Of a stretch of 64,000 nucleotides of DNA, positions 2,491 through 63,070 are shown piece after piece. The notes under the pieces are model-generated. The model was given only the letters and a program-made list of their open reading frames with translations. It was not told the origin of the DNA and did no database searches. This DNA is from Mobula hypostoma (Eukaryota): contig NC_086097.1 in assembly GCF_963921235.1 (NCBI RefSeq), forward strand, positions 115,074,001 to 115,138,000. Reading direction: 5' to 3'. Position numbers and translations under genes: made by a program. Position 1 is the first letter of the stretch; each line of letters opens with the position of its first letter.

Positions 2491-4935
2491 AACACTCTGA
2501 AGAAAATTTCCAATGTAGTACTAGTAGTGCTACTGGAACCTATGCAAGATTGAGGAAAAGAATCTTTGAAGACCACGAACTACAAATTCAAACCAATTGT
2601 CCTTCCTACATTACTGTGTAGGGCTGAATCATAGACAACTTACAGTAGGAATGTGAAAGCTCTGAAACAATATAACCAAAGAGCCTTGCAAAAGTTTTTG
2701 AGGAAAGACAGACACGTTAACATCAGCATACTGGAGAGAGTCAACATGAGCAGCATTTCCACCATGATGAAGCAACACCAACTCCAATGGATGGGCCATG
2801 TCATTCAGATGTCTTACTCCTTTACTCCCAGTTGAAGGAAGGTCAGTGAGCCCCTGGTGGGCAAAGGAAATGCTTCAAAGATTACATCAAGATCAGCCTG
2901 AAGAAATTCAACATTACAGCAAAAAACTGAGAAGACACTGCACTCAATAGATACAGCTGGAGAAAATCTGTTCAAATGGATGTTGTGCTAAAGGAGCGCG
3001 GCGTGTGCTGCAGAGAGCAAGTGGCAGCTGTGAAAGGAGAGACTGAACAACCAAAAGACCGAGCCAGCAATGACAGCCACCTCTTAGTCCTGTCCACATT
3101 GGCACTAGAACATGTGGATCCCAGATCGACCTCTACAGCCACCTGAGGGCCCACGAATAGACAAACTCTTAGGATTCTTACTTGACTCGTCTCGACTCCA
3201 GTGACAACAATATATTTGAGGTTCTGTCACCTTCCTGTTAACATAAACCATTCTGGCCAATCTTCTTTGACCTTTCTCGTTAACAAGGCAATTTCACCCG
3301 CAGAACTGCCACTCACTAGATTTTTTTTTGCACAATTCTTGGAAAGCTCTAGAGACACTTGAGCATCAAAATCCCAGGAAATCAGCAGTTTCTGAGATAC
3401 TCAAAACGCTCCCTCGGGCACCAACAATCATTCCACTGTCAGAGTCCCTTAGATCACATATCTTCCCCATTCTGATGTTTGTTCTGAACAACAACTGAAC
3501 TTCCTGACCATGGCTGCATGCTTTTATGCATTGGGTTGCTGCCACATGATTGGCTAATTATAAATTTGCATTAATGAACAGAAGTATCTAATAAAGTGGC
3601 TACTAAGTGTATTCTTATTATAATTTATAATTCTATTTTATATGGATTGCACTGTACTACTGCTATAAAATGACAAATTTCATGACATATGGAAGTGATA
3701 TTAAACCTGAATTTGATTCTGATCCTGATTCATTGCAGTGGTTGGTATGTCACTAGGTGCAGATATATCATGGGTCTACTATGAATAGTTATATTGGGCT
3801 GACTCATTTTAGTTAATGGATAGCATAGCTCACTGGTACATAAACAGAGAATATGCATACAGGGAATATTATATCATCAATGAAAAGAAAAATTGCAATA
3901 TCTACATCAATTGAATGCTCCACTGGGAATTTTGGCCTTTCCATGGATCTGTGCATCAATAATCAGTGAATCCAGGAACAAATCTCTTCCTACTGCAGGA
4001 GCTTTCCATTCTGTAATGACTGCACTGCAGTCCCTGAAAGTTATTTCAATCATTGTCCCAATTAAATACTACTATTTAAGCAGCAGTAATGAAGAAATGA
4101 ATTATATTGGCTGAATTCAGAAGTGCAGCTTGCTGATTGTACATATTTCTTTCTGCTTCATGTGAATATAGCCAGTTAAGATAAAAAGAAATCTTAAAAT
4201 GGCTTTACCCAGCAGTGTTTCTGTATGCTTACATAATAAAACATTTCAATCTGTTGTCATTTAATCTCTGGGTAATAATTACATAAAACCTGTTCTGTTC
4301 AATCAGAGCCTGCTATATATAATGAGACGTGCAGAATACAGTATTCTGCCAGACAGAAGTGGATGGAAATATGATTTGCAATTACTACCAAGATGCTAAG
4401 AACAGTTCAGGACTCTATCACTTTGTCCAGCAATATGTTAAAATAGCTCACATCTTAAAATTTGTCTCCTTCAGATTTAGAGTGTCATGCCAACACATCA
4501 CAGCAAATTCCTAATATACGTATACGGCGAATAAAATTGATCATAAATTAATATGCATTATATGTAAGAATTTCCAGCGGGTAAATAAAACAGAACAATT
4601 TCTATTTCTGCATGGGTAACAACTATACAGGGGTACAAACACGAATTGAAACAAAACTGTTGGAAACAAAACCAAGGAAAGAGATGTAATTCAACAAATT
4701 TCTTGAATCTAAATCATGAGAAAATCTGCAGATGCTGGAAATCAACAGACACAAAATGCTGGAGGAACCCAACAGGTCATACAGCACCCATGGAAGTGAA
4801 TAGACAGTTGACATTTCGGACCTAGACACTTCTTCAGAACTGTCTGAAGGTGGATTAAGGGAGGAGGATAGCTAGAAGGTGATAGGTGAAGCTAAGTGGG
4901 TTGGAAAGGTAAAGAGGCTGGAGAGAAAGGAATCT

Positions 4936-26470: not shown

Positions 26471-28084
26471 AGATTTTTGATTAATGGATAATGTCAGCTC
26501 AGCATTGATGGTGGAATACTGAATTTCCACTGTAGTTTTCAGAGATTGAGGGATTTCTGCCAGTGCTGAAGCCAGTCATCAGATGCTGCATAGTTGTAGT
26601 TTCTGCCAGTGGTGTAATGGCTCCTAGTGCCATTTTGGGAGAGGATGGATTCTGGGCTTCTCTGGAGCAGATTTGTTATCAACATCACATTAAAAGACTA
26701 GGCAACTGAGCACCCCAATCCCTGGTTGCTAATTACTCTTGTTCAATGTCTCGTTGTGGACAAATGCTTCCTCTAAGGGTATCTGAGTTAGTGGCTTCAA
26801 CAAATTTGCTTGAATGACGCAGAAGAAGACTATTCAGCCCAGCAAGTCGATGCCAGATTCCAGCAGAGCAATCACAGTTCTGTTATTGTCCTCTAGTCGT
26901 GCAACATCTTTTTTTCTCAACATCTATGAACTCCATTCTCCTCTCCTTTCAGATTCCTTCTCATTCCTTATGTTTTCCACTGATCACCTCCTAGCTTCTC
27001 ACTTCACACCCCTCCCTCACTCACCCACCTACCTCTCACCTGGCTTCACCTATCACCTGTCGGCTTGTACTCCTTCCCCTCACTCCCCTTTCTTTCCAGT
27101 CCTAATGAAGGATCTCAGGCCAAAATGCTCCACAGATGCAGCCTGACCTGTTGAGGTCTTTCATGTGTGTTGATCTAGATTTCCAACGTCTGTAGAATCT
27201 CTTGTGTTTATAATTTATTTTTTCATTCTTTGTCACTTAGGTACAACAATGGGTAATTAATAGTCACTGGTTTTCTTAGCAGTATTTAATGTTATCTGGT
27301 AGTTGGCTCGGGGGCAGGTGGAGGACAAGTCTGGGGCAACAAGAAATCTGACTGAATGTTTTTAGATCAATGGACTTTTATCAGAATCGGGTAAAGCTTG
27401 AGGTAATCAGATTTTAAGATGCAGGCAAGAGAGAAAGAGGCAGAAAGAACCAGTGGAAACATTTGTATTAAGGAGGAAGACAACAAGGGATGGGTAGATT
27501 TTCCAGTGCCCAGAAGCGGTTGTGCATCTGTCGGGGTTTGGTGGGACTCAAGTGCAGAACAATGAATACTTTTTCACCAGGATTTATTAGAGAGCACAAA
27601 GGCATCAGTCTTTCAAAAACAGAAGGCAGGCACGAATCTGAAATGGCAGGCAGAGGTCTTCACCAGGAAAGGCAGTCAGGCGAGGGCAGACAATCCAGAG
27701 CGCACGGGCAAAAATCAGGTCCAAGAACGGGCAAAATCCAAAACACAGAATCAGGCAAAATCGGTTGGCAGAAGTCACAATGACAGGCTAGAACGACACA
27801 GGTCAGAACTGGGATGAACTGGTAGAGAATGCGAGTCAAGGCAGGGTTTAAGTGGACAGGGTAATGAGTGAAAATTAGAAACAGGTGGATGCAAATGAGG
27901 AGACAAGAAGGTAATTGGAGGAAGTCCAAAAAAGGAAAGGGGCTGGGCCAGAACCCACATGGCCAGGTGAAAGAAAACAGAAATTAAAGACTGTCGTGAT
28001 CCAGAGCTACCAGCAGAGGCCCTTCGACCCAGTGTTCAGGCCGGATCTTTAACAGTACCTACCCCCCGCCTCCCCCACTGGCTT

Positions 28085-31000
28085 CTCCAGACACCCTTCT
28101 TGCTGATATGGGATGGCTCCTATGAAAGTCCTTAATGAGAGAGGGATCCAGGATATCTCAAGCAGGAACCCAATACCTCTCTTCGGGGCCATAGCCCTGC
28201 CAATCAATGAGGTATTGTAGTCCACGACCTCTGCGTCGAACATCCAGTAATCGGCGCACAGTGGACGTCTCCGAGCAATCGATGAGATGGGGAGGGGGAG
28301 GGGGCTTGGGGGTGGGACAGAGGGGGCTGCAGACAAAGGGCTTAATCCTTGAAACATGGAATGTTGGATGGATTCTGCAAAGGGTAGGAGGTAGTTTTAG
28401 ATGTACCACCGAAGGGCTGATCACCTTGGTGATGAGGAAAGGTCCAATGTAGCGTGGCGCCAGCTTGCAGGAGTCCACCTTCAAGGGGACGTCACGAGAA
28501 AATAACCACACCTTCTGACCCTGGCGGTAACGGGGGGCCTCAATGTGGTGACGGCCTGCTTGCTGCTTCATTCTGGCTATAGATTGAAGCAGCATCTTTC
28601 GGGCTCGTCTCCAGGTCCATGAACACCACTGGACAAATGCTTCGGCTGAGGGAACGCCCACTTCTTCCTCCTGAGACGCGAATAAGGGGAGTTGATAGCC
28701 AAGACAGCACTGGTATGGTGATAAACCTGATGAAGTAGAAGGCAAAGGATTAATGGTGTACTCGACCCAGAGAAGTTGCTGACTCCAAGAGGATGATTCC
28801 TGAGACGTCACACAATGGAGCATCACCTCCATCTACTGATTAGCCCGCTCAGTCTGGCCATTACACTGTGGATGAATCCCAGATGAGAGGTTAACCCTGA
28901 TCCCGAGTAGTTTGCAAAAGGCCCTCCAAAAGTGGAAGGTAAATTGTGAACCTCTATCAGATACCACTTCAACGGGGAGACCATGAATGTGGAAAACATA
29001 CTGAATCACCTGGTTGGCAGTCTTCTTGGCAGAGGGCAGCTTGGGAAGGGGAACTAAGTGGACCAATTTGGAAAAACGATCCACTATGGTAAGAACGGTA
29101 GTGTTACCGTCAGATGGAGGGAGTCTGGTGACCAAGTCCAGTGCAATATGTGACCAGGGCCTTCTAGGAACAGGCAGGGGTTGCAGGAGACCAGCTGGTG
29201 GCTGGCTGGAGGTCTTGTTCTGTGCACAGACTGGGCAGGCAGAAATGAAGCTCTCAACATCCTTCTTCAGGGATGGCCACCAAAATCTTCAACTGATGAA
29301 AGCCGATGTGCGTCTGATGCCAGGGTGACTTGCCAGTCTGGACGTGTGTCCCCACTGGAGAACCTGGGAGCGGACAGACTTGGGAACATACAATAGATTA
29401 GCAGGGTAGGCACTAGGACCACACTCACCCTGCTGGGCAGACTGGACCACAGATTCAATCTCCCACTGTGTTGCGGCAACCAGACATTGCTTGGGGAGAA
29501 TGGTCGTAACCTTGGGCACCTCGTCGGTTGTTGGAAACTGCCTGGAGAGCGCGTCAGGCTTGCCATTCTTAGAGCCAGGACCATAGGCCAGGGTGAATCT
29601 AAAACAGGCAAGAAACAGGGACCACCGAGCCTAGTGGGAGTTGAGGCGTTTGGCTGAACGGATATATTCCAGGTTCTTGTGATCCGTCCAGACTAGAAAA
29701 GGAGTAGTCGTTCCCTCAAGCCAATGCCGCCATTCCTCAAAAGCAAGTTTAACAGCCAATAGCTCTCGATTGCCGATGTCATAGTTGCGTTCTGTGGGTG
29801 AAAATTTGTGGGAAAAAAAGGCGCACGGGTGTAGCTTGTCGTCCTCTGCTGAACGCTGTGACAGTATAGCCCCTACTCCTACATCAGAGGTGTCAGTCTC
29901 TACAATAAACTACCTTGTAGGATCGGGCTGAAGGAGGATAGGTGCAGTGGTGAAACGAGTCTTTACATCAGAAAAGGCTTTCTCAGCTGCTGGATTCCAG
30001 GCGAACTTCGACTTGGAGGAGGTTAGAGCAGTCAGCGGGACGGCCAGGATGCTGAAATTTCGAATGAATCGGCGATAGAAGTTGGCAAACCCAAGAAAGT
30101 GTTGGACATCTTGTCGAGAGGCGGGTTGTGGCCACTCCTCTACCACCTTGATCTTCTGAGGGTCCATCTGGATTCCTCCAGCGCTGATCACATATCCCAG
30201 AAACGAAGTTGAACTCCGGTGAAATTCACACTTTTCTGCCTTCATAAATAACTGATTTTCCAAGAGTCGTTGGAGCACCCGACGGACGTGCTGGATGTGT
30301 TCAGAGAGGGACCTAGAAAATATCAGAATGTCATCTAAGTACACAAATACAAATTGATTCAACATGTCTCTGAGGACATCATTCACCAGGGACTGGAACA
30401 CAGCAGGACCATTAGAAAGTCCGAAAGGCATTACAGATATTTGTAGTGCCCAGATGGCTTATTGAACGCAGTCTTCCACTCACCCCCCTCTCTTATGCAG
30501 ACCAGATGGTAAGCGTTGCGGAGGTCGAGCTTGGAGAAGATAGAAGCACCCTGGAGCAATTCAAATGCAGATGACATAAGAGGAAGAGGATAACGCTTCT
30601 TAATGGTGACCTCATTGAGACCGCTATAGTCCACTCAAGGACACAGGTACCTGTCCTTCTTAGCTACAAAGAAGAACCCTGCGCCTGTGGGGAGGAAGAG
30701 GGACGGATAATTCTTGCTGCCAAGGCCTCCTGGATATATTCGTCCATCGCTTCCCTTTCAGGTGGAGACAGGGAATACAGATGACCCCTCGGTGGCGAGG
30801 TTCCCAGAAGGAGATCTATAGCACAGTCATAGGGGCCATGTGGGGGTAAGGTGGTGGCCTGAGTTTTGCCGAATAGCAGCTTGAGGTCCAGATATTCAGG
30901 GGGTACAGAGGACAGATCGGGAAACTCTTCTGTAGGCAGAAGAACCGGACTTTGAGTAGCATGAGCAACGTGCAGACAATGATTTAGGCAGAAAGGACTC

Positions 31001-31400
31001 TAGCTTAACACTCTGTTATTAGACCAATCAATGTGTGGACCGTGCTGAGCTAGCCATGGGTGGCCTAACACAACATCAGCTTTGGGGGAATCTATTACAT
31101 GGAAAGCAATGCTCTCCTGGTGATTGCCAGAAATGAGGAGACTCACCGGAGCTGTAGAGTGGGTAACCATGGCAAGTTTCACTCCGGTTAAGCTGCTGGC
31201 CCCCAGGGGTTGCTTCAGACGGGAGAGTTGCATCCCAAGATTGGCCGGAAAACTGGAACTGATAAAATTTCCCTCAGCCCCAGAGTTGATAAAAACTGAA
31301 ACGGCGCGTCTCCTCCCTTCAGCCGGTATAAAAGCAGGTAGCAGGGTTCGAGTGACGGAGAACTGGGGGAAGGAAGTACTGCTCACCCGTAGTCCCCTCT
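28085..31400 (-). pseudogene. pol: Sushi-type pol (protease, RT, RNaseH, integrase, chromodomain), disrupted
   Basis: VFINSGAEGNF (PR), [16 protein letters not shown] and YLDD (RT), VVSDRGSQF and PQCNGQTER (IN), LAPRYIGPF (GPY/F module), [17 protein letters not shown] (chromodomain). It contains multiple stops and frameshifts. Confidence 0.92.
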
Positions 31401-32387
31401 TTACAAGCGAGCATTGGCTTTTACGGGACAGGTAGATACATAGTGACCAGCCTGACCACAATACAGACAGGAGTTGGTACTGAGTCTCCTCCTTCTTTCC
31501 GAAGGAGACAGACGGGTACGATCAATCTGCATGAGTTCCGTTGGGCTGGATGGGGGTGACTGAGGACTCAGGGAAGGAGATCTGGGTGCTGGCTGGGAAG
31601 AGGTCAGACGCCCCGTGGTGGTTCTTTGTGACCCCCGGACATCACGCTCCTGCTGACGCTGTTTTACGCGGCTGTCAATCTTAATGGCCAAATCGAACAG
31701 CTCTTGGAAGCCAGCAGGCAGGTCACGGGTGGCTAGTTCATCCTTAACCTCCTCGCTAAGTGCATAGAGGAACACGTCCGATTGGGCCACTGAATTCCAG
31801 TTGCTAGTGGCGACTAGTGTGCGGAACTGAATGGCGTAGTCCAAAACAGAACGGTTACCCTGACGAACTCGCAACATCTCCCTTGCTGCCTCTCGCCCCT
31901 GCTGGGAACGGTCAAAGACTCTTCTCATCTCCTCACAAAAGTCCTTAAACGTGTGGCATAAAGGGGCTCTGCTGTCCCACACAGCCGTACCCCACTCTCT
32001 TGCTCTTCCTGACAGCAGCGTGATAACACAAGCAATACCGGATCGATCTGTGGGAAAGGTAGTGGGCTGCAGCTCAAAAATCAGCGAGCATTGAGACAGG
32101 AAGGATCTGCAGGTGCCTGGTTCACCATTGTAAAGTTCAGGTGGAGGTAAACGGAGCTCTTGGGCTGGTTGGGTTGGAGTCTGTGGGACTGATGGTGCAG
32201 CAAGACAAGACGGGTTAGAGCTCAGTGCCAGCTGAATCTGCTGTAGCTGGGAGGCCATGCTGGTCAGAGTGGCAGAGAAGGCTTCCATTGACTGATTGAT
32301 AGAGGCGAACTGCGTTTCATGTCTCCCTAAAAACACACCCTGTCGGGAGAGGGCCTCACGCACCTGGCTGGGGTCCGCTGAGTCCAT
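31401..32387 (-). CDS. gag: Sushi-type Gag with CCHC zinc knuckle
   Basis: MDSADP..PELYNGEPGTCRSFLSQC..ITLLSGRAREWGTA..CLYCGQAGHYVSTC. The ATG at 32387 lies just inside the 5' LTR/PBS. Confidence 0.9.
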   Translation of the reverse strand: MDSADPSQVREALSRQGVFLGRHETQFASINQSMEAFSATLTSMASQLQQIQLALSSNPSCLAAPSVPQTPTQPAQELRLPPPELYNGEPGTCRSFLSQCSLIFELQPTTFPTDRSGIACVITLLSGRAREWGTAVWDSRAPLCHTFKDFCEEMRRVFDRSQQGREAAREMLRVRQGNRSVLDYAIQFRTLVATSNWNSVAQSDVFLYALSEEVKDELATRDLPAGFQELFDLAIKIDSRVKQRQQERDVRGSQRTTTGRLTSSQPAPRSPSLSPQSPPSSPTELMQIDRTRLSPSERRRRLSTNSCLYCGQAGHYVSTCPVKANARL

Positions 32388-33289
32388 CTTGGCCAGTTCG
32401 TTCTGTTGGGTTTCGGTGGGACTCAAGTGCAGACCAACGAAGACTTTTTCACCAGGATTTATTAGGGAGCACAAAGGCAACAGTCTTTCAAAAACAGAAG
32501 GCAGGCACGAATCCGAAATGGCAGGCAGAGGTCTTACCAAGAAAGGCAGTCAGGCGAGGGCAGACAATCCAGAGCGCACAATCAAAAATCAGGTCCAAGA
32601 ACGGGCAAAATCCAAAACACAGAATCAGGCAAAATTGGTTGGCAGAAGTCGCAACGACAGGCTAGAACGACACAGATCAGAACTGGGATGAACTGGCAGA
32701 GAACGCTAGTCAAGGCGGGGTTTAAATGGACAGGGTAATGAGTGAAAATTAGGAACAGGTGAGTGCAAATGAGGAGACAAGCAGGTAATTGGAGGAAGTC
32801 CAAAAAGGAAAGGGGCTGGGCCAGAACCCACATGGCCAAGTGAAAGAAAACAGAAATTAAAGACTGTCGTGATCCAGAGCTACCAGCAGAGGCCCTTCGA
32901 CCCAGTGTTCAGGCCGGATCTTTAACAGCATCAGCCTCAGCTCATGATATGTATTAGCAGATTGCACTTATGATGTGGGCAGGAAGCAAAACATCCAGGG
33001 TTATGTATAATAGAGAACATGCACACTCTACACCAACAGAGCTGTGGGTCAGGATCAAACCTGTGTCCTCAGAGATGTGAGGCAACAGTGCTGACAACCA
33101 TCAGTGATCAGTCCGTTTCTAAAATATGCTGTGGCAATTCGCTAATTTTGCTGAGCCAATAAGAAAGGAATAAAAGACAAGTGTAATAAATTTCATGATT
33201 TTTGAAATAGCTGCTCATTTTCTGATATCTAGTAAATGAATAAATCATAGGAAGAGTCGATATTCTTACTTCGTAAATACGTCAGTATG

Positions 33290-33800: not shown

Positions 33801-34194
33801 GTAGATATAAACTTGTGAGAATATGACAGACAAGAATTTAATTATCTTTATTTTCTTTTGTTCTTCTCACTAGTCTTACACTGCACTGCACTTATTTCAG
33901 TCAATCTTTTTATTGAGAGAAACTTTAATGAGAGTAGTAACAAGTTATGAACTTAAAATGAATAATGATGTACACTCTTGTTTTAAGGCAGATTTCTATG
34001 ACATTAACAATTGTTTCTTCAGAGGGTGTTAAAAATATCTCAAATACTATTTCCATCTTGAGGATGCTTTTCATGATAAAGAATGTGTTTGGTAATATTG
34101 AGAAGCATAAACTTCCCAAATGTGGCTATGAATGCTCACTGGCTAGTGAATACTAGCCTCAATTAGATTTACATTGGTAAACTACAATGACATG

Positions 34195-34392
34195 TGTACC
34201 ATATAGCCTACAGTATAATAAGGGACTACTTTATGTTTTAGTAACATATCGTTGAATGCACTATTAGGCGCGTATTGATCTGTACTTGTGTGCCGAGTTC
34301 GTTTTCTGCCAGTAAAGAACCATGAACCTTAGCTCTCTTCTCCAGCATTTTTATTAATAGCATTGCTGTGTAACCAGGCCACATACACAACA
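34195..34392 (+). repeat. 5' LTR of the SUDS3-carrying element
   Basis: Direct repeat of 37273-37522 with TG..CA ends. Confidence 0.92.
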
Positions 34393-34783
34393 AATTGGCA
34401 ATGAGGATAATGAACCTACATCGTATCGGAACGCCGTGTTTTAATTGATAACGACACTTGGAAGAAGAGCGCAAGGAACAAGCCAAGGAGCGGGAGAAGG
34501 AGGCAGAGCGAGGCAGTGAGTCTGAAAGGAAGCGGGAGCACAGCCAGGGTCAGGAATGTCGGGAGACTAAGATACAAATTCGGAGCCGCAGCACGTCTAG
34601 CCAAGACCACAGCCGGCGCTGACCCCAAGGGACTGAGGGTCTGCCTGCCTCAAAAGGGAGATAAAAAGGAGCGACACACACACAATCTAGACGGAGTGTG
34701 CTCGTGGCGCTAGCAAAAAGGACACAGAGTCAAAAAGGAAAATAGGGGGAAAGCGGGGCTAAATTAACATAACAAAGAAGGCG

Positions 34784-35731
34784 ATGATTGGAACCATTAC
34801 AGCATTTGATAGTGGCATTGAAGACTGGGCAACTTACATTGAAAGAGTGGAGTTATATTGTGAGGCTAGCGGTGTTAAGGATGAAAAGAAAGCCAGCGCC
34901 TTACTCAGTATTTTGGGAGCGAAAACATACGGGCTGCTATGGAGCTTGTTAACCCCTGAAAAGCCAGCTGACAAAACATTCATGCAAATAGCAGACACTC
35001 TCCAACAGTATTTAAACCCCAAACCACTGGTCATTGCTGAAAGATTTAAATTTCACAGACGGAATCAGAGCAAAAATGAAAGTATTTCTGAATATTGTGC
35101 TGAATTGCGCAAATTATCAGAACATTGTCAATTTGGAGCTGGTCTATCGGACACATTGAAGGACAGGTTAGTGTGTGGCATGCACTGTGAAACCACACAG
35201 AAGAAGCTCCTGGGTGAAAAAGACCTTACACTAGAGAAGGCGCTGAACATTGCAATATCAACGGAAACAGCAGCACAGGGTGCTTCAGAAATACAACAAA
35301 AATCTCTGGAATATGCTATGAATAAAATGTCACTGAACAGAAATGAAGGAAAGAAATGTTACCGTTGTGGGAACACGTCACATGACCCGGAGGGTTGTTG
35401 GTTTAAATACAAAGAATGCAGAAACTGTGGCAAACAGGGCCACACTGGCAGATTATGCAAAACTAGTAAACAGCCGAAAAAGGACAAAATACAGAGAAAC
35501 AAGAAACCCTGGAAAGGAAAACACAACAATGTACACAAAATGGAAAAAAGCAGTTCTGATGAAAACGACTCAGACGAAAGTGAATTGTCTTGTCTGCAAC
35601 TTCACAGCATGAAAGAGACAGATGATCGAAGAGTAATAAGAATCACTCCACAAGTGGCAGGTGTGAGACTGAAAATGGAGTTGAACACAGGCTCAGCTTT
35701 AACAGTGATCCTTGTACACAACTACAAATGA
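34784..35731 (+). CDS. gag: Mag-like Gag (two CCHC-type knuckles) running into the protease N-terminus
   Basis: MIGTITAFDSGIEDWATYIERVELY..PKPLVIAERFKFHRRNQ..DRLVCG..CYRCGNTSHDPEGC..CRNCGKQGHTGRLC..LKMELNTGSALTVI. Confidence 0.9.
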   Translation: MIGTITAFDSGIEDWATYIERVELYCEASGVKDEKKASALLSILGAKTYGLLWSLLTPEKPADKTFMQIADTLQQYLNPKPLVIAERFKFHRRNQSKNESISEYCAELRKLSEHCQFGAGLSDTLKDRLVCGMHCETTQKKLLGEKDLTLEKALNIAISTETAAQGASEIQQKSLEYAMNKMSLNRNEGKKCYRCGNTSHDPEGCWFKYKECRNCGKQGHTGRLCKTSKQPKKDKIQRNKKPWKGKHNNVHKMEKSSSDENDSDESELSCLQLHSMKETDDRRVIRITPQVAGVRLKMELNTGSALTVILVHNYK

Positions 35732-35950
35732 CTGTTTTCTCACATACCTCTGAAACGAACTAAACTACTGCTAAAGACTTATACCGGACATAAATTGCAT
35801 CCCAAAGGTAAAATTAAAGTGACAGTGACCTACAGAGTCAAAACACAGCAGCTAAACCTCTATGTACTGAAAAATGGAGGACCACCATTGCTAGGATGAG
35901 AATAGCTCAGGAAAATCCAGTTGGATTGGCACACCATCAAGGCACTAGAT
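35640..35950 (+). pseudogene. Retropepsin protease remnant, in frame with gag and SUDS3
   Basis: MELNTGSALTVI (DTG changed to NTG)..[28 protein letters not shown], where LLG*E*L corresponds to the canonical LLGRDWL. Confidence 0.85.
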
Positions 35951-35983
35951 GTGTCGACAAAGGAGGGAAGCTCGACGGGGAAA

Positions 35984-36908
35984 ATGTCCGCAGCTCTCCT
36001 CTCACCCACTGTCGACTATTACAACGATGAGAAGGAGCAAGACAGCGTCAACAATGAGGACGAATGCAGTATCCGTGGCCGCAACTCGGATGAAGATACA
36101 GAGGACGCAAGGGAGATAGATATTGCCAATAAGCAGGATGATGAAGACTACCTGGAAGCAAAAGAGCAGATGTGCCAGGAGAAATTGACATCTTTCAAAA
36201 GACAGCTACAGCAGTTACAGGAAGGCACTTTGCAGGAGTATCAGAAAAGGATGAAGAAACTAGACCAACAATACAAGGAAAGAATACGAAATGCAGAGCT
36301 TTTACTGCAACTGGAGACAGAACAAGTGGAAAGGAATTATATTAAAGAGAAGAAAGCAGCAGTGAAGGAATTTGAAGATAAAAAGATTGAGTTAGAAGAA
36401 GAGAAAAAGATGATTGCGAATGAGAGGCTAACAATGGAACTCACAGGAGATTCTATGGAGGTAAAGCCAATAATGACTAGGAAACTAAGGAGGAGACCTA
36501 ATGACCCTGTTCCAATTACAGACAAAAGATGAAAACCTGCACTTGCGCAGTTATCTTACTTGTTAACAGATGAACAGATAACGGAAGATCTGCGAACTCT
36601 CAACAAGCTTAAATCTCCGAAAAGACCAGAATCTCCATCTTCTCCTGAGCATCTTCCCAGCACTCCTGCTGAATCACCAGAACAAAGATATGAAGCACGA
36701 ATAGAAGATGGAAAGTTATATTACAATAAGAGATGGTATCATAAAGGTCAGGCTATCTATTTGGAATCTAAGGAGAATACGAAGATTGGCTGTGTAATTA
36801 GCTCAGTTGGAACAAATAAGATATGGGTAAGGAAGACAAGTGATAACACAAAGATGCATATATCTCTAGGATAGCTGCTTCATTATACGGAGGCGATCTG
36901 CTGCCTAG
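35984..36908 (+). pseudogene. SUDS3: Intronless retrocopy of SUDS3 (Sin3 histone deacetylase corepressor complex component SDS3)
   Basis: I recognise [96 protein letters not shown] and the C-terminal FIIRRRSAA* as vertebrate SDS3. The copy runs from the start Met to the stop with no introns. It has stops at 36530 and 36872 and a small frameshifting deletion at about 36878. Confidence 0.96.
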
Positions 36909-37272
36909 AACTCTTAGCAAGCTGGAGGCGCACATCTTCTTAACTCCCTATGCTCAGAGGTCAACTTTACATGACATTTATATGGAAATCTGTATTAAAA
37001 CAAACAAGTTTATTGACAGACGTTATCCGGAGAGGCAGAGTAGACCCCCCCCCGCCCCCCGCAGAGACTTGAGTTATAAATGGGTCTTAGATCAAAAGGA
37101 AAAAAAGGCTTGTTATAATTTGATATTATTATGTTACTTTGTTATAATCTGATATTTTTAAGTTACTAAGTAAACAAATGGTAGGCATTTGTATGTTATT
37201 TGCATATTTGTTTAGCATAGTGCCCCAGTAAAACAAAACAGTTGATACACTATTAAAATAAAAGGGGAGGAG

Positions 37273-37522
37273 CGTACCATATAGGCTACAGTATTATAAG
37301 GGACTACTTTATACTGACTACTTAAAGGGACTACTTTATGTTTTAGTAACTCACCATTGAATGCACTTTTAGGTGCATATTGAGCATGAGCTATTAGGTG
37401 TGTATTGATCTGTACGTGTGTGCTGGGTTCGGTTTCTCCCAGTAAAGACCAATGAACCTTAGCACCCATCTCCAGCATTTTTATTAATAGCATTGTTGTG
37501 TAACCAGGCCACATACTCAACA
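37273..37522 (+). repeat. 3' LTR of the SUDS3-carrying element
   Basis: Follows the PPT, begins cgtacc (T>C relative to the 5' LTR), ends caaca, and is followed by the TSD ACATG. Confidence 0.92.
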
Positions 37523-37854
37523 ACATGTATCTGTAATAACCTTCATTATTTTCCCCCTCCCCCTTTCCTTTTCTTCCATTCCCCATTCTGGCTCTCCTCT
37601 TACTCTTCTCTTCTCCTCATCTGCCTATCATCTCCCCCTGGTGCCTCTCCTCCTTCTCTTTCACCCACGGTCTACTCTCTTCTCCTATCAGATTCCATCT
37701 TCTTCAGCCCTTTACTGCTGCCACCTATCACCTCCCAGCTTCTCACTTCATTCCCCACCCACCCCTGCCACCCACCAAACTACAGAGAGGGAGACAGGAT
37801 ATGTCCAAGCTCATTTGTATGTAGCCATTGATATTTTTTCACTTTACTTACAGT

Positions 37855-41593: not shown

Positions 41594-41750
41594 TGAAATG
41601 TACTTGCCAGGTTGCTGTCACCAGAGTTGAGCTGGTGGTGTAATCTGAGTTCCAAGCTCAGGGTCTTCCTTCTGCGATGGTCATTCCCCAAGTTCAAGAT
41701 TCAAGTTCATTTATTACATGCACACTGAAACATACAGTGAAATGTGTCAT

Positions 41751-44342
41751 CGCAAGATCCTACGTCTACGGACTCCAGAGCCTGCCGGCCCCGACGCTAG
41801 CAGGCATGAACTTCAGATTGCGGCCCCTGCCATTGATCTCGGCGGCTCCAACACCTCAGGGCATATTCAAAACCCGGACTCCAGCAACGACCATGGACAC
41901 ATTCACAGCGATTGCGCAACCACCAACTGCGACTCCAACCTTGAACTCCAGGCCGGGTCTTTATGTGCTGCTGTTGTGACTCCCGTCTCCCCTTCCCCCA
42001 CCACCACTCTGCAACCCCGTCTCCGTCAGATCCCACTGTCAACTCCTGGGCCCTCAGAGGCTCCATCTTCCTCTCACCCCAACCCTCCCCTTTCCATTGA
42101 CACCCCCAGCCTCCCCCCTCCCCCCTCTGATCCCAGCTCTCATCCATGCCGGGTCTTTACCATCCCCTCCGACCTTCAACTGTCGGAGGCAGAACGCTCT
42201 GTTCTCAGTAAGGGCCTCACCTTTGTCCCCCTTCGCCCACACCTCAGCGAGTTCCGTGTTCGCCACGATGCGGAACTTTTCTTCCACCGTCTCCGTCTCC
42301 GAGCCTACTTCTTCGGCAAGGACTCTTCCACCCCCACCGATGACCCCTTCTCCCATCTTCAACCCTCCTCTTCTTCATGGACACCTCGCTCTGATCTTCT
42401 GCCTGCTTTGGATCTCTTTATTGCCAACTGCCGACGGGACATCAACCGTCTCGACTTTACCGCACCTTGTCCCCATTCCAACCTCACTCCTTCGGAACGC
42501 TCTGCTCTCCACTCCCTCTGCACTAATCCTAACCTTATTATTAAACCCACCGATAAGAGGGGTGCTGTTGTAGTCTGGCGTACTGACCTCTACCTTGCCG
42601 AGGCACAGCGACAACTCACGGATACCTCCTCTTATTTACCCCTCGATCGTGACCCCATTAAGGAGCACCAGGCCATTGTCTCCCACACCATCACTGACTT
42701 TATCCGCTCAGGGGATCTCCCATCCACTGCTACCAACCTTATAGTTCCCACAGCCCGCACTCCCCGTTTCTACCTCCTACCCAAGATCCACAAACCTGCC
42801 TGTCCTGGCCGACCTATTGTCTCAGCTTGCTCCTGCCCCACCGAACTCATTTCTGCATACCTCGACACTGTTTTATCACCCCTTGTTCAATCCCTTCCGA
42901 CCTATGTTCGTGACACTTCTCACGCTCTTAAACTTTTCGATGATTTTAAGTTCCCTGGCCCCCACCGCTTTATTTTCACCATGGATGTCCAGTCCTTATA
43001 TACTTCCATCCCCCATCAGGAAGGTCTCAAAGCTCTACGCTTCTTTTTGGATTCCAGACCTAATCAGTTCCCCTCTAACACCACTCTGCTCTGTCTAGCA
43101 GAATTAGTCCTTACTCTTAATAATTTCTCCTTTGGCTCCTCCCACTTCCTCCAAACTAAAGGTGTAGCTATGAGCACCCGTATGGGTCCTAGCTATGCCT
43201 GCCTTTTTGTTGGGTTTGTGGAACAATCTATGTTCCGTGCCTATTCTGGTATCTGTCCCCCACTTTTCCTTCGCTACATCGACGACTGCATTGGCGCTGC
43301 TTCTTGCACGCATGCAGAACTCGTTGACTTTATTAACTTTGCCTCCAACTTTCACCCTGCCCTCAAGTTTACCTGGTCCATTTCTGACACCTCCCTCCCC
43401 TTTCTAGATCTTTCTGTCTCTGTCTCTGGAGACAGCTTATCCACTCATGTCTACTATAAGCCTACTGACTCTCACAGCTATCTGGACTATTCCTCTTCTC
43501 ACCCTGTCTCTTGCAAAAACGCCATCCCCTTCTCGCAATTCCTCCGTCTCCGCTGCATCTGCTCTCAGGATGAGGCTTTTCATTCTAGGACGAGGGAGAT
43601 GTCTTCCTTTTTTAAAGAAAGGGGCTTCCCTTCCTCCACTATCAACTCTGCTCTTAAACGCATCTCCCCCATTTCACGTACATCTGCTCTCACTCCATCC
43701 TCCCGCCACCCCACTAGGAATAGGGTTCCCCTGGTCCTCACCTACCACCCCACCAGCCTCCGGGTCCAACATATTATTCTCCGTAACTTCCGCCATCTCC
43801 AACGGGATCCCACCACTAAGCACATCTTTCCCTCCCCCCCTCTCTCTGCATTCCGCAGGGATCGCTCCCTACACAACTCCCTTGTCCATTCGTCCCCCCC
43901 ATCCCTCCCCACTGATCTCCCTCCTGGCACTTATCCGTGTAAACGGAACAAGTGCTACACATGCCCTTACACTTCCTCCCTTACCACCATTCAGGGCCCC
44001 GAATAGTCCTTCTTGGTGAGGCAACACTTCACCTGTGAGTCGACTGGTGTGATATACTGCGTCCGGTGCTCCCGATGTGGCCTTTTATATATTGGCGAGA
44101 CCCGACGCAGACTGGGAGACTGCTTTGCTGAACATCTACGCTCTGTCCGCCAGAGAAAGCAGGATCTCCCAGTGGCCACACATTTTAATTCCACATCCCA
44201 TTCCCATTCTGACATGTCTATCCATGGCCTCCTCTACTGTAAAGATGAAGCCACACTCAGGTTGGAGGAACAACACCTTATATTCCGTCTGGGTAGCCTC
44301 CAACCTGATGGCATGAACATCGACTTCTCTAACTTCCGCTAG
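41751..44342 (+). pseudogene. PLE RT-GIY-YIG polyprotein with a single in-frame stop at 44004-44006
   Basis: ORFs 41718-44006 and 44013-44342 are in the same frame. QGPE*SF corresponds to QGPKQSF in the copy at about 40300. Confidence 0.9.
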
Positions 44343-60887: not shown

Positions 60888-61549
60888 ATAAAAGGAGCAG
60901 CAACCATTGTGAAAGTGAGCCTGTGTAGGAGTCGTAGCTGAGGCTTTGGCGAGGAGGCAAAAGTGAGTAACAGGTTAGAATCAGGTAAGGTTTTTTTTCC
61001 CTGTTGATCTGAGTCCTTGGATTTAACGGTAGACAAAATGGGAGTTAGGGCAGTGGAACGCTCCTCCTACAAGATGTGGAAAGTCAAGGAACTTTCTGGT
61101 CTCCCTGATGACTTACATCTGAGGGAAGTGCACCCAGCTGCAACTCCTGACAGACTCAGTCAAAGAACTGAAGATGCTGGTGGATGTGCTCAGAACCATC
61201 TAGAAAGCTGAGGAGATCACAGATGAGAGTTTTAGTGAGGTGGTCACACCTCATGTGCTCGCTAAAGATAAATGGGTGACCACCAAGAGCAGTAAGGTCT
61301 AAACACAAGGCCTTTTTACTTATATTGAGAAAGAGGATAACTAAGGAGAGGCTAAGTGGACTCAAGGATAAAGGATGGAATTTGTGCTTGGATTCAGACC
61401 AAGATAGTTCTGGGTCTTCTGAAAGGCATTAACATGGATAAGACCCCAGAGCCTGATGCATATATCCCAGAATATTAAAAGAACTACAGAAAAGGAGATT
61501 AGAATTTTAAATGCACAATATGTCCCTGAATAATGAAAAAAGCCAAAAA

Positions 61550-63070
61550 TGTTACCAATGTGGCAAATCCTCTCATGATGCAAATGACAGTTGGTTCAAG
61601 GAAAAAGTGTGCTCAATGTGTCACCGACAAGGTCACACAGAGAGAGTGTGCAAGGCAGACAAAAAGCACAACTGAGTGAAAATACAAAACTAAGCAAATG
61701 CATGAAGTTACCAAATGTAAAACAGAATCAGACAACGTAGAGTATGAAAAAGGTGAACTGTCATGCCTAGGACTGCATAGTATTACTGAAGCAGATCACA
61801 ATATAACATGGATCACAATAGATGTGTCCAGTGTAAAACTGAAAATGGAGCTGGATACACGGTCAGTTTTGTCTATAATTCCAGAGGCTGACTAAAACTG
61901 ATTGCTTTCTAAGTTACCATTACAGTGATGCTAGGGAGTGTCTCCCAAAGGCAAACTGAAAGAGAATGTGACGTATGGAGGCCAAACATAGCAGTAAGAT
62001 ATTTATCTATTGAAAAGTGGAGGGCCAGCACATTTCAGGCGTAAATGGTTGAGAAAAATCCAACTGGACTGGCACTCAATCAAAGCTCTCAGTGTGACAT
62101 CAACAGACCAAATAGTAGCACTAACCAGATACTGGCAGAGCTGCTTACTGCTAATGAGAAGTTGTTAGAGAAAGGAATAGATAAACAGATTGAAGACTTG
62201 CCCAAAAAGCTGTTTGGGATGCCAAAATGTTTGAAATGCACCTCCACAGGCACCGTTGCACCCATGGGAGTGACTGACTTTACCATGGCAACGAGAACAT
62301 ATTGACTTTGCCAGGCCATTCATGGACTCCATGTTCCTGATTGCTGTGGATGCTCAGTCAAAGTGGCCGGAGGCTATATAATGACATCAACCACTCAGCA
62401 AAGACTGGCTCTGCCCTGAGGAGTATCTTCACCAGAAAAGGTTTACCAGAACAAATTGTGAGTGACAATGGACCACAATACACATCAGAAGTATTCCGAC
62501 TGTTCATGAAGAAAAATGGCATCAGACATTTCAAGCCAGCTCCTCACCACCCAGCAGCAAATGGGTTAGCTGAAGGGTTTGTCCAAAAATTCAAGAAGCC
62601 CATTAAAGTGATGGACATGGAGGACATTTCTCTCCAGCACAAGGTGGACAACTTCCTTTTTGTATATTAGAATTCTGTTTATGCGACAACAGATCAAACA
62701 CCTGCAATGCTGTTCTTGAGCAGAAATCTGAGATCTCACATAGACCTTCTGAAACCAGACCTCCAGAGGGAAGTACAGAATAAACAGTTCAGCCAGTTGT
62801 CAAGTGAAGCAGGAACCAATGAACACAGTGAATGTTGGATATCAGACATGGAGACATCATGTGGACCAGATACTGGATGCTCAACCAAAGAATATACCTG
62901 AATCAACTGCATCCAACAATATGGACACATTACAGTCACCAGACTTGCCTCTCAAGAATAATGTCACTGACAGCAACGTGACACCGGAAACTGAGAATGT
63001 TGTCTTAGACAAGATACCTACCAAACCTGATAAACCTAGCTGCAAATATGATTTGGTACACATGTGATTT
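61550..63070 (+). mobile_element. Degenerate Mag-like Gypsy internal fragment (gag knuckles, protease, integrase; RT deleted)
   Basis: CHRQGHTERVC, ELSCLGLHS..KLKMELDTRSVLSII, IQLDWHSIKAL, and GLPEQIVSDNGPQY..APHHPAANGLAE (integrase). I did not identify LTRs. Confidence 0.85.

Follow-up and report, generated by a model that had tools for sequence, protein, structure and literature searches.

How did the spliced message of a host gene come to lie between the two long terminal repeats (LTRs) of a retrotransposon, with no poly(A) tail behind it? The question is raised by an element in the window, i.e., the 64,000-nt stretch of Mobula hypostoma DNA analysed here (NC_086097.1, positions 115,074,001 to 115,138,000, forward strand). 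The original prediction, made from the letters of this stretch, held that reverse transcriptase (RT) had switched template twice, onto and off a co-packaged SUDS3 mRNA, thereby replacing several kb of pol, and that the structure is not a LINE-made retrocopy which happened to land in an LTR element. The alignments that it called for, to the parental SUDS3 gene and to a pol-bearing partner element, were run and mapped both breakpoints, each with a 7-nt microhomology.

The element in the window

The window element is a Gypsy-type LTR retrotransposon (34195-37522) with the target-site duplication (TSD) ACATG at both ends (Table 1). Both LTRs are present, the TSD lies outside them, and none surrounds the SUDS3 cDNA. 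Gag, protease and SUDS3 share one frame, which is now broken; the SUDS3 stop TAG lies at 36906-36908, the stop TAA of the integrase tail at 37077-37079, and one letter of the 5′ seam word is changed in this copy. The partner stretch that matches the window's gag-protease gives matches to aspartyl-protease families (Pfam), and the window's gag alone gives no Pfam match. The primer-binding-site-like stretch is a putative tRNA-Ser match. The named proteins closest to the element are those of Mobula and Hemitrygon rays.

Table 1. Features of the SUDS3-bearing element, in window positions
Feature	Positions	Strand	Basis or remark
5′ target-site duplication ACATG	34190..34194	+	same 5 letters at 37523-37527
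5′ LTR, 198 nt, TG...CA	34195..34392	+	177/198 aligned letters identical to 3′ LTR
Primer-binding-site-like stretch	34396..34406	+	also behind the 5′ LTR of complete copies and of partner L087
Gag and protease, decayed, single frame continuing into SUDS3	34784..35961	+	translation
5′ seam, 7-nt word common to partner (just behind protease) and SUDS3 5′UTR	35965..35971	+	
Spliced SUDS3 coding sequence, broken	35984..36908	+	exon map on parent; Sds3 domain
SUDS3 3′UTR, first 113 nt, ATTAAA at 36994-36999	36909..37021	+	parent last exon (L061)
3′ seam, short type, GACAGAC, in SUDS3 UTR and integrase tail	37015..37021	+	
Integrase last codons and stop	37022..37079	+	partner copies; first 15 nt absent from long type
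3′ non-coding stretch of element	37080..37259	+	alignable to partner copies
Polypurine tract	37260..37272	+	sequence; partners have one in the same place
3′ LTR, 250 nt, two internal insertions	37273..37522	+	
3′ target-site duplication ACATG	37523..37527	+	pairs with 34190..34194

Other repeats share the window. A decayed, distant Gypsy relative whose RT is missing lies at 61500-63050 and matches partner L108 at 68-69% over protease and integrase. A further Gypsy-like element on the minus strand (27527-32928), its long terminal repeats separated by about 4.87 kb, has gag, RT and integrase-like frames. A 762-aa open frame at 41718-44006 looks, by eye, like a non-LTR reverse transcriptase, with related pieces elsewhere in the window, and a 35-nt unit is arrayed in tandem at 733-1009.

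Parent gene, partner copies and the two seams

The parent SUDS3 gene lies in the same genome (G000:C78:8439661-8380525), has 12 exons and encodes 319 aa. It was located by an acceptor-site pattern whose one match is the last exon; the exon border used for this pattern was assumed from human SUDS3 and later confirmed on the parent. DNA likeness to the last exon had missed the gene: of 40 scored matches, 30 loci were fetched, and the parent was not among them. The window copy has lost all 11 introns, including one of the AT-AC kind, and 1001 of the 1057 aligned letters of the captured stretch are identical to the parent. The AT-AC intron is intron 7 (G000:C78:8398853-8395737), with AT...AC ends and what we take to be a minor-spliceosome-like motif at its 5′ site; it is cleanly removed in the copies. 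Relative to the parent, the family has lost 24 nt near 36387, flanked by TGAGTT repeats, and 11 nt are lost near 36877; reading the 24-nt loss as a GT-AG intron was ruled out by sequence in every register. Two annotated Mobula ‘SDS3-like’ proteins (P0002 and P0003) are without the same 8 residues as the element copies, and P0003 resembles the 5′ seam read in a shifted frame; judged by these sequence likenesses, both are probably element copies annotated as genes.

The ATTAAA in the captured UTR is present in the parent too, 22 nt ahead of the window's 3′ seam, and the parent 3′UTR has further hexamers at +413, +547, +850 and +1101. Spliced parent contigs from two other organisms (C and D) extend past both 3′ seams described below, and a short SUDS3 mRNA isoform ending at UTR +113 is possible. 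No LTR, gag or tail remnant was found in the 170 kb around the parent (G000:C78:8370001-8540000); an element allele beside the parent, absent today, could have been lost later.

Partner copies carry the same LTRs together with pol, and their integrase ends in RRYPERQRRPP. In L082 and L083, the integrase frame ends ...KQTSQ(D/G)RRYPERQRRPP(Q)RLE(L/F) followed by the stop. L087 has both LTRs (TG...CA), a TSD, a primer-binding site and a polypurine tract, and what looks by eye like an RT; in L108, Pfam places protease before RNase H and integrase, as in Gypsy elements, with no match to RVT_1 in its partner stretch. The clade may be Mag-like. With L087 pol as the query, 40 scored candidates yielded 49 matches, of which 30 loci were fetched. 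One partner pattern returned 3 partners only and missed others, so no count is drawn from it, and a partner pattern at the 5′ seam yielded just one indel copy. SUDS3 is absent from all 33 partner loci examined, and among 129 SUDS3 loci (repeats included) pol appears in two rows, which are one copy, at the 5′ side. The partners are as decayed as the cargo copies, i.e., the SUDS3-bearing ones (median identity to the window's gag-protease 0.905 vs. 0.912 and 0.914).

At the window's 3′ seam, GACAGAC stands between TTTATT and TGAAG in the parent, and between TTTCAG and GTTACC in the partner. The word has an exact match in 8 of 30 partner loci, one of which is preceded by foreign sequence; 17 loci differ from it by one letter and 3 by two or three, and in the other 2 it could not be placed. 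L082 has the exact word. At the 5′ seam, 19 of the 30 partner loci have GGGCAGC unchanged, one of these being read from a shifted row. Two partners, L112 and L125, equal the parent at this word over 10 of 10 letters, and from this sequence likeness a partner sub-lineage like theirs may be the capturing one. An exact overlap of at least 7 nt, as found at both seams of the window copy, is expected by chance at 6.4e-4 per seam (0.064% of 200,000 random parent × partner joints), whereas wider likeness around the seams was not clearly above chance (P = 0.049, 0.13 and 0.91; the 0.13 belongs to the window's 3′ seam). Shared letters alone cannot separate the models, because a deletion between short repeats after an insertion leaves the same letters. 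The window's 3′ seam is very probably a product of RT template switching of some kind.

Much of the original prediction survives this mapping. Behind the SUDS3 stop, the ATTAAA, the integrase-like tail and the lack of an A-run were all found. The SUDS3 UTR, put at about 105 nt, is present, but its length is 113 nt, since GACAGAC also belongs to the parent UTR. The tail does match the integrase ends of L082 and L083, but the two pieces quoted for it, DRRYPERQSRP and QRLEL with its stop, lie in different frames, and the C-run between them changed length in the window copy. Pol was indeed replaced; however, the ‘several kb’ amount to the 2,712 nt that lie between the seams in partner L108, where the RNase H and integrase domains are found.

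A family with two 3′ seam types

The SUDS3 stretch gave 504 first-look candidates, of which the 40 scored are 91-93% identical, the window's own match aside; a shared-UTR query gave 323 candidates in the window's genome, and a query from UTR kept in one seam type only gave 143, parent included. These are numbers of candidates, not of copies. Full-length copies were examined in 41 cases, 26 with both LTRs readable, and in 20 of these 26 complete copies the two halves of the TSD agree or differ by one letter, almost all of these TSDs being different. Among 56 copies (4 repeated loci dropped) chosen by likeness to the window copy, 39 are of a short type and 17 of a long type, one short copy with a small deletion being classed by eye. 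The short type, which is the window's own, ends SUDS3 at UTR +113. The long type keeps the UTR to +339 (226 nt more), has 15 nt less of integrase and shows no shared letters at its seam. A further 29 long-type loci were put to the seam test; 28 agree with it, and the remaining one has AGAGCAG in that position. The two types have an identical 5′ seam, and neither is a deletion of the other.

Both types derive from one founder, because they have in common the 24-nt loss (48 of 48 scoreable copies; 8 not covered) and changes at c.559 and c.787, which are absent from the parent and from Hemitrygon P0004. Three UTR letters common to all copies were rejected as founder marks, as they equal the outgroup parents. 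Outside this genome, the short seam occurs in organisms A and D and the long one in B, each on a single contig from runs guessed to be RNA. The copies read show no poly(A) behind the captured UTR, and no copy was found to reach UTR past +339: a first search for longer UTR drew 2,208 candidates through a common repeat, and the rerun without the repeat, with 817 nt of parent UTR beyond the longest captured end, matched the parent alone (1/1 candidate).

The two types are similar in age and sequence. LTR divergence has a median of 0.100 in short copies (n = 17) vs. 0.099 in long copies (n = 9; p = 0.36). Columns separating the types number 1 of 1,095 in SUDS3 and 3 of 217 in the tail, and they mark a sub-lineage within the long type. 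The partners' state at these three tail sites is found in 28 of 39 short copies, and 13 of 42 long copies are also partner-like.

Within the cargo, any one frameshift is shared by at most 3 of 41 copies, and the stops that recur among copies sit at CpG-prone codons; the frame was therefore likely open in the multiplying lineage. A raw pN/pS of 0.6 was rejected as a sign of selection, being an effect of the mutation spectrum, and private SUDS3 changes (silent/missense/stop 279/678/41 observed vs. 242/628/48 expected) fit neutral decay. It would be a long shot that protease-released SUDS3, minus 8 coiled-coil residues, dampened Sin3/HDAC silencing, with the frame kept for this reason while the seams were re-cut again and again, and UTR trimming as a further gain. 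If true, the cargo was not a passenger but helped the family outnumber its own partner.

Several observations point to recombination among the RNAs of the family. The gag region is a mosaic, its haplotypes occurring alike in both cargo types and in partners, and linkage within gag declines with distance (mean r2 from 0.29 to 0.03, rho -0.34, 463 pairs). An insert nested near SUDS3 c.668-677, about 950 nt long where both sides are seen and with a 10-nt overlap, occurs with both 3′ ends, i.e., in 7 of 39 short and 2 of 42 long copies (L032, L037, L046, L049, L056, L059, L060, L182 and L187); two of the short rows show its 3′ side alone and one long row is shorter. One further copy, L146 (G000:C62:66707700-66714200), combines the standard long 3′ seam with a new partner-to-SUDS3 5′ seam at about 4271-4280, where partner RT continues for 275 nt more and then passes into SUDS3 c.728 through the 10-nt word CCAGCACAAA; the copy has one letter of this word changed. 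L146 has its own TSD. Its seam was found in this single copy; a second match to the seam search is an ordinary SUDS3 stretch. Because the standard long seam is common to it, L146 is best read, from its sequence, as a recombinant between partner and cargo.

Origin of the short seam and comparison with known systems

Against this background, we give even chances to the reading that the window's short seam is a second-generation template switch, made between a partner RNA and a cargo RNA with a longer SUDS3 UTR. A single capture of spliced SUDS3 mRNA in a particle would have made the 5′ seam, in frame with gag-protease, together with the long 3′ seam. In the founder, the 24 nt would then have been lost between TGAGTT repeats, and two or three amino acids would have been changed, a state that both types share. 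Cargo and partner RNA would later have been co-packaged, and RT, having read 15 nt past their common tail, would have landed on GACAGAC, so that 226 nt of UTR were omitted and the short type resulted. The 15-nt spacing of the seams would follow from base pairing of the new DNA with cargo RNA along the common tail, an idea based on acceptor-invasion models. What is seen directly is that insertions of both types were numerous and of similar age, every copy having a 5-nt TSD of its own, and that neutral decay followed.

This long-first order needs just one meeting with the host mRNA, plus an event of a kind that is seen in L146, whose re-cut 5′ end mirrors the proposed step at the opposite seam; in addition, the tails of the short type are mostly partner-like. 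However, LTR divergence, being equal, favours neither order, and the tail differences, marking a sub-lineage inside the long type, are compatible with either order. The short type also looks like a textbook first capture, with shared letters at both seams and a 3′ seam 22 nt behind ATTAAA, a usual cleavage distance. Moreover, the most distant organism compared (D) showed the short-type end and no long one, in one contig that speaks to presence only, L146 is one copy, and the wider likeness at the short seam is at chance level.

The shared letters at both seams, the distance to ATTAAA and the short-type end in organism D favour a reversed order, in which the short type is the direct product of two switches, onto co-packaged SUDS3 mRNA and off it again, and the long type arose later by a second, non-homologous jump onto the mRNA and a homologous return; the short type is also the commoner one (39 of 56, in a sample chosen by window likeness). 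We consider this order rather unlikely, though a real contender. It calls for a renewed encounter with that mRNA and for a jump made without shared letters when 1 kb of perfect match was available, and it confines the return jump to the 286 nt after c.787, given the founder changes common to both types. It is more doubtful still that a lost precursor with more UTR and more pol was trimmed by two deletions, or arose by read-through from an element upstream of SUDS3, in which case the 5′ seam would have been formed in DNA and one transcript would have yielded several 3′ seams, in the manner of oncogene capture. Such a precursor would account for one 5′ seam with two 3′ seams, the 24-nt loss shows that short-repeat deletions occur in the family, and read-through capture is the classic retroviral route as far as described in PMC4997597. 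However, the UTR beyond +339 is found in the parent alone, pol in SUDS3 loci is confined to the one copy, at its 5′ side, the parent's 170-kb surroundings hold no LTR or gag remnant, and a read-through origin requires a sweep of the shared founder changes through both types.

A full SUDS3 retrocopy placed by a LINE in a partner's pol, with later deletions removing pol, poly(A) and TSD on both sides, is the least likely of these accounts. Deletions leave the same shared letters and the window is rich in LINE-like frames; but the poly(A), the longer-UTR copies and the SUDS3-holding partner loci expected of it were not seen in the copies and loci read, and an insertion and three deletions are needed, two of them ending 15 nt apart, with all intermediates lost. 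The original prediction is supported in holding that LTR machinery made the chimera: SUDS3 stands in place of pol instead of breaking it, each seam has 7 nt in common, no partner locus holds SUDS3, and the distal 817 nt of UTR match the parent alone. SUDS3 with poly(A) and a TSD inside pol, named there as the contrary case, was not found among the copies. Its two-switch model is supported as to template-switch seams, but the window's 3′ seam is less probably the record of the jump on SUDS3 mRNA, since copies with the other 3′ seam have more UTR and less integrase and L146 shows that seams with shared letters were also made later.

A literature search, which left most subscription papers unsearched, found no paper on this SUDS3-Gypsy element. 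A preprint on cartilaginous fishes (bioRxiv 10.64898/2026.06.26.734816) names SUDS3 among five leading retrocopy parents and ties retrocopy numbers to non-LTR elements and selective filtering. The word Gypsy is absent from its main text, whereas the copies described here descend from one founder multiplied by LTRs, which offers a mechanical cause for SUDS3's top rank: one multiplied founder, not many events or selection.

Host mRNA inside LTR elements is also known from maize Bs1, which carries pieces of several genes, and human FAM8A1/HERV-K (both per the account in PMC5131818); by comparison, the present case involves a vertebrate Gypsy element whose parent and partner are both readable in the genome. 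Capture of host RNA by retroviruses is alike in resting on template switching between co-packaged RNAs at fortuitous microhomology (PMC4997597, in its relevant passages), but differs in that the cargo family is germ-line and decayed and has no element trace by the parent. The closest likeness is to LTR-mediated retrocopies in animals, in which spliced mRNA partly replaces the internal ORF and seams show a median microhomology of 6 bp (25 of 29 junctions; Tan 2016, PMC5131818). As the sections of that paper on these retrocopies describe, the cDNA is flanked by neither poly(A) nor TSD, both LTRs are kept and later non-autonomous cycles follow. Multi-copy cases are treated there as products of one switch, whereas the window family shows evidence of re-cut seams. 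This serves as a warning, as shared seam letters are usually taken as proof of mRNA capture, yet they are also made later between family RNAs. The mechanism is thus known from Tan 2016, and the novelty of the window family is its mapped seams and the evidence of re-cutting, in a vertebrate LTR capture where donor gene, partner element and dozens of copies stand side by side and the seams are mapped to the letter.
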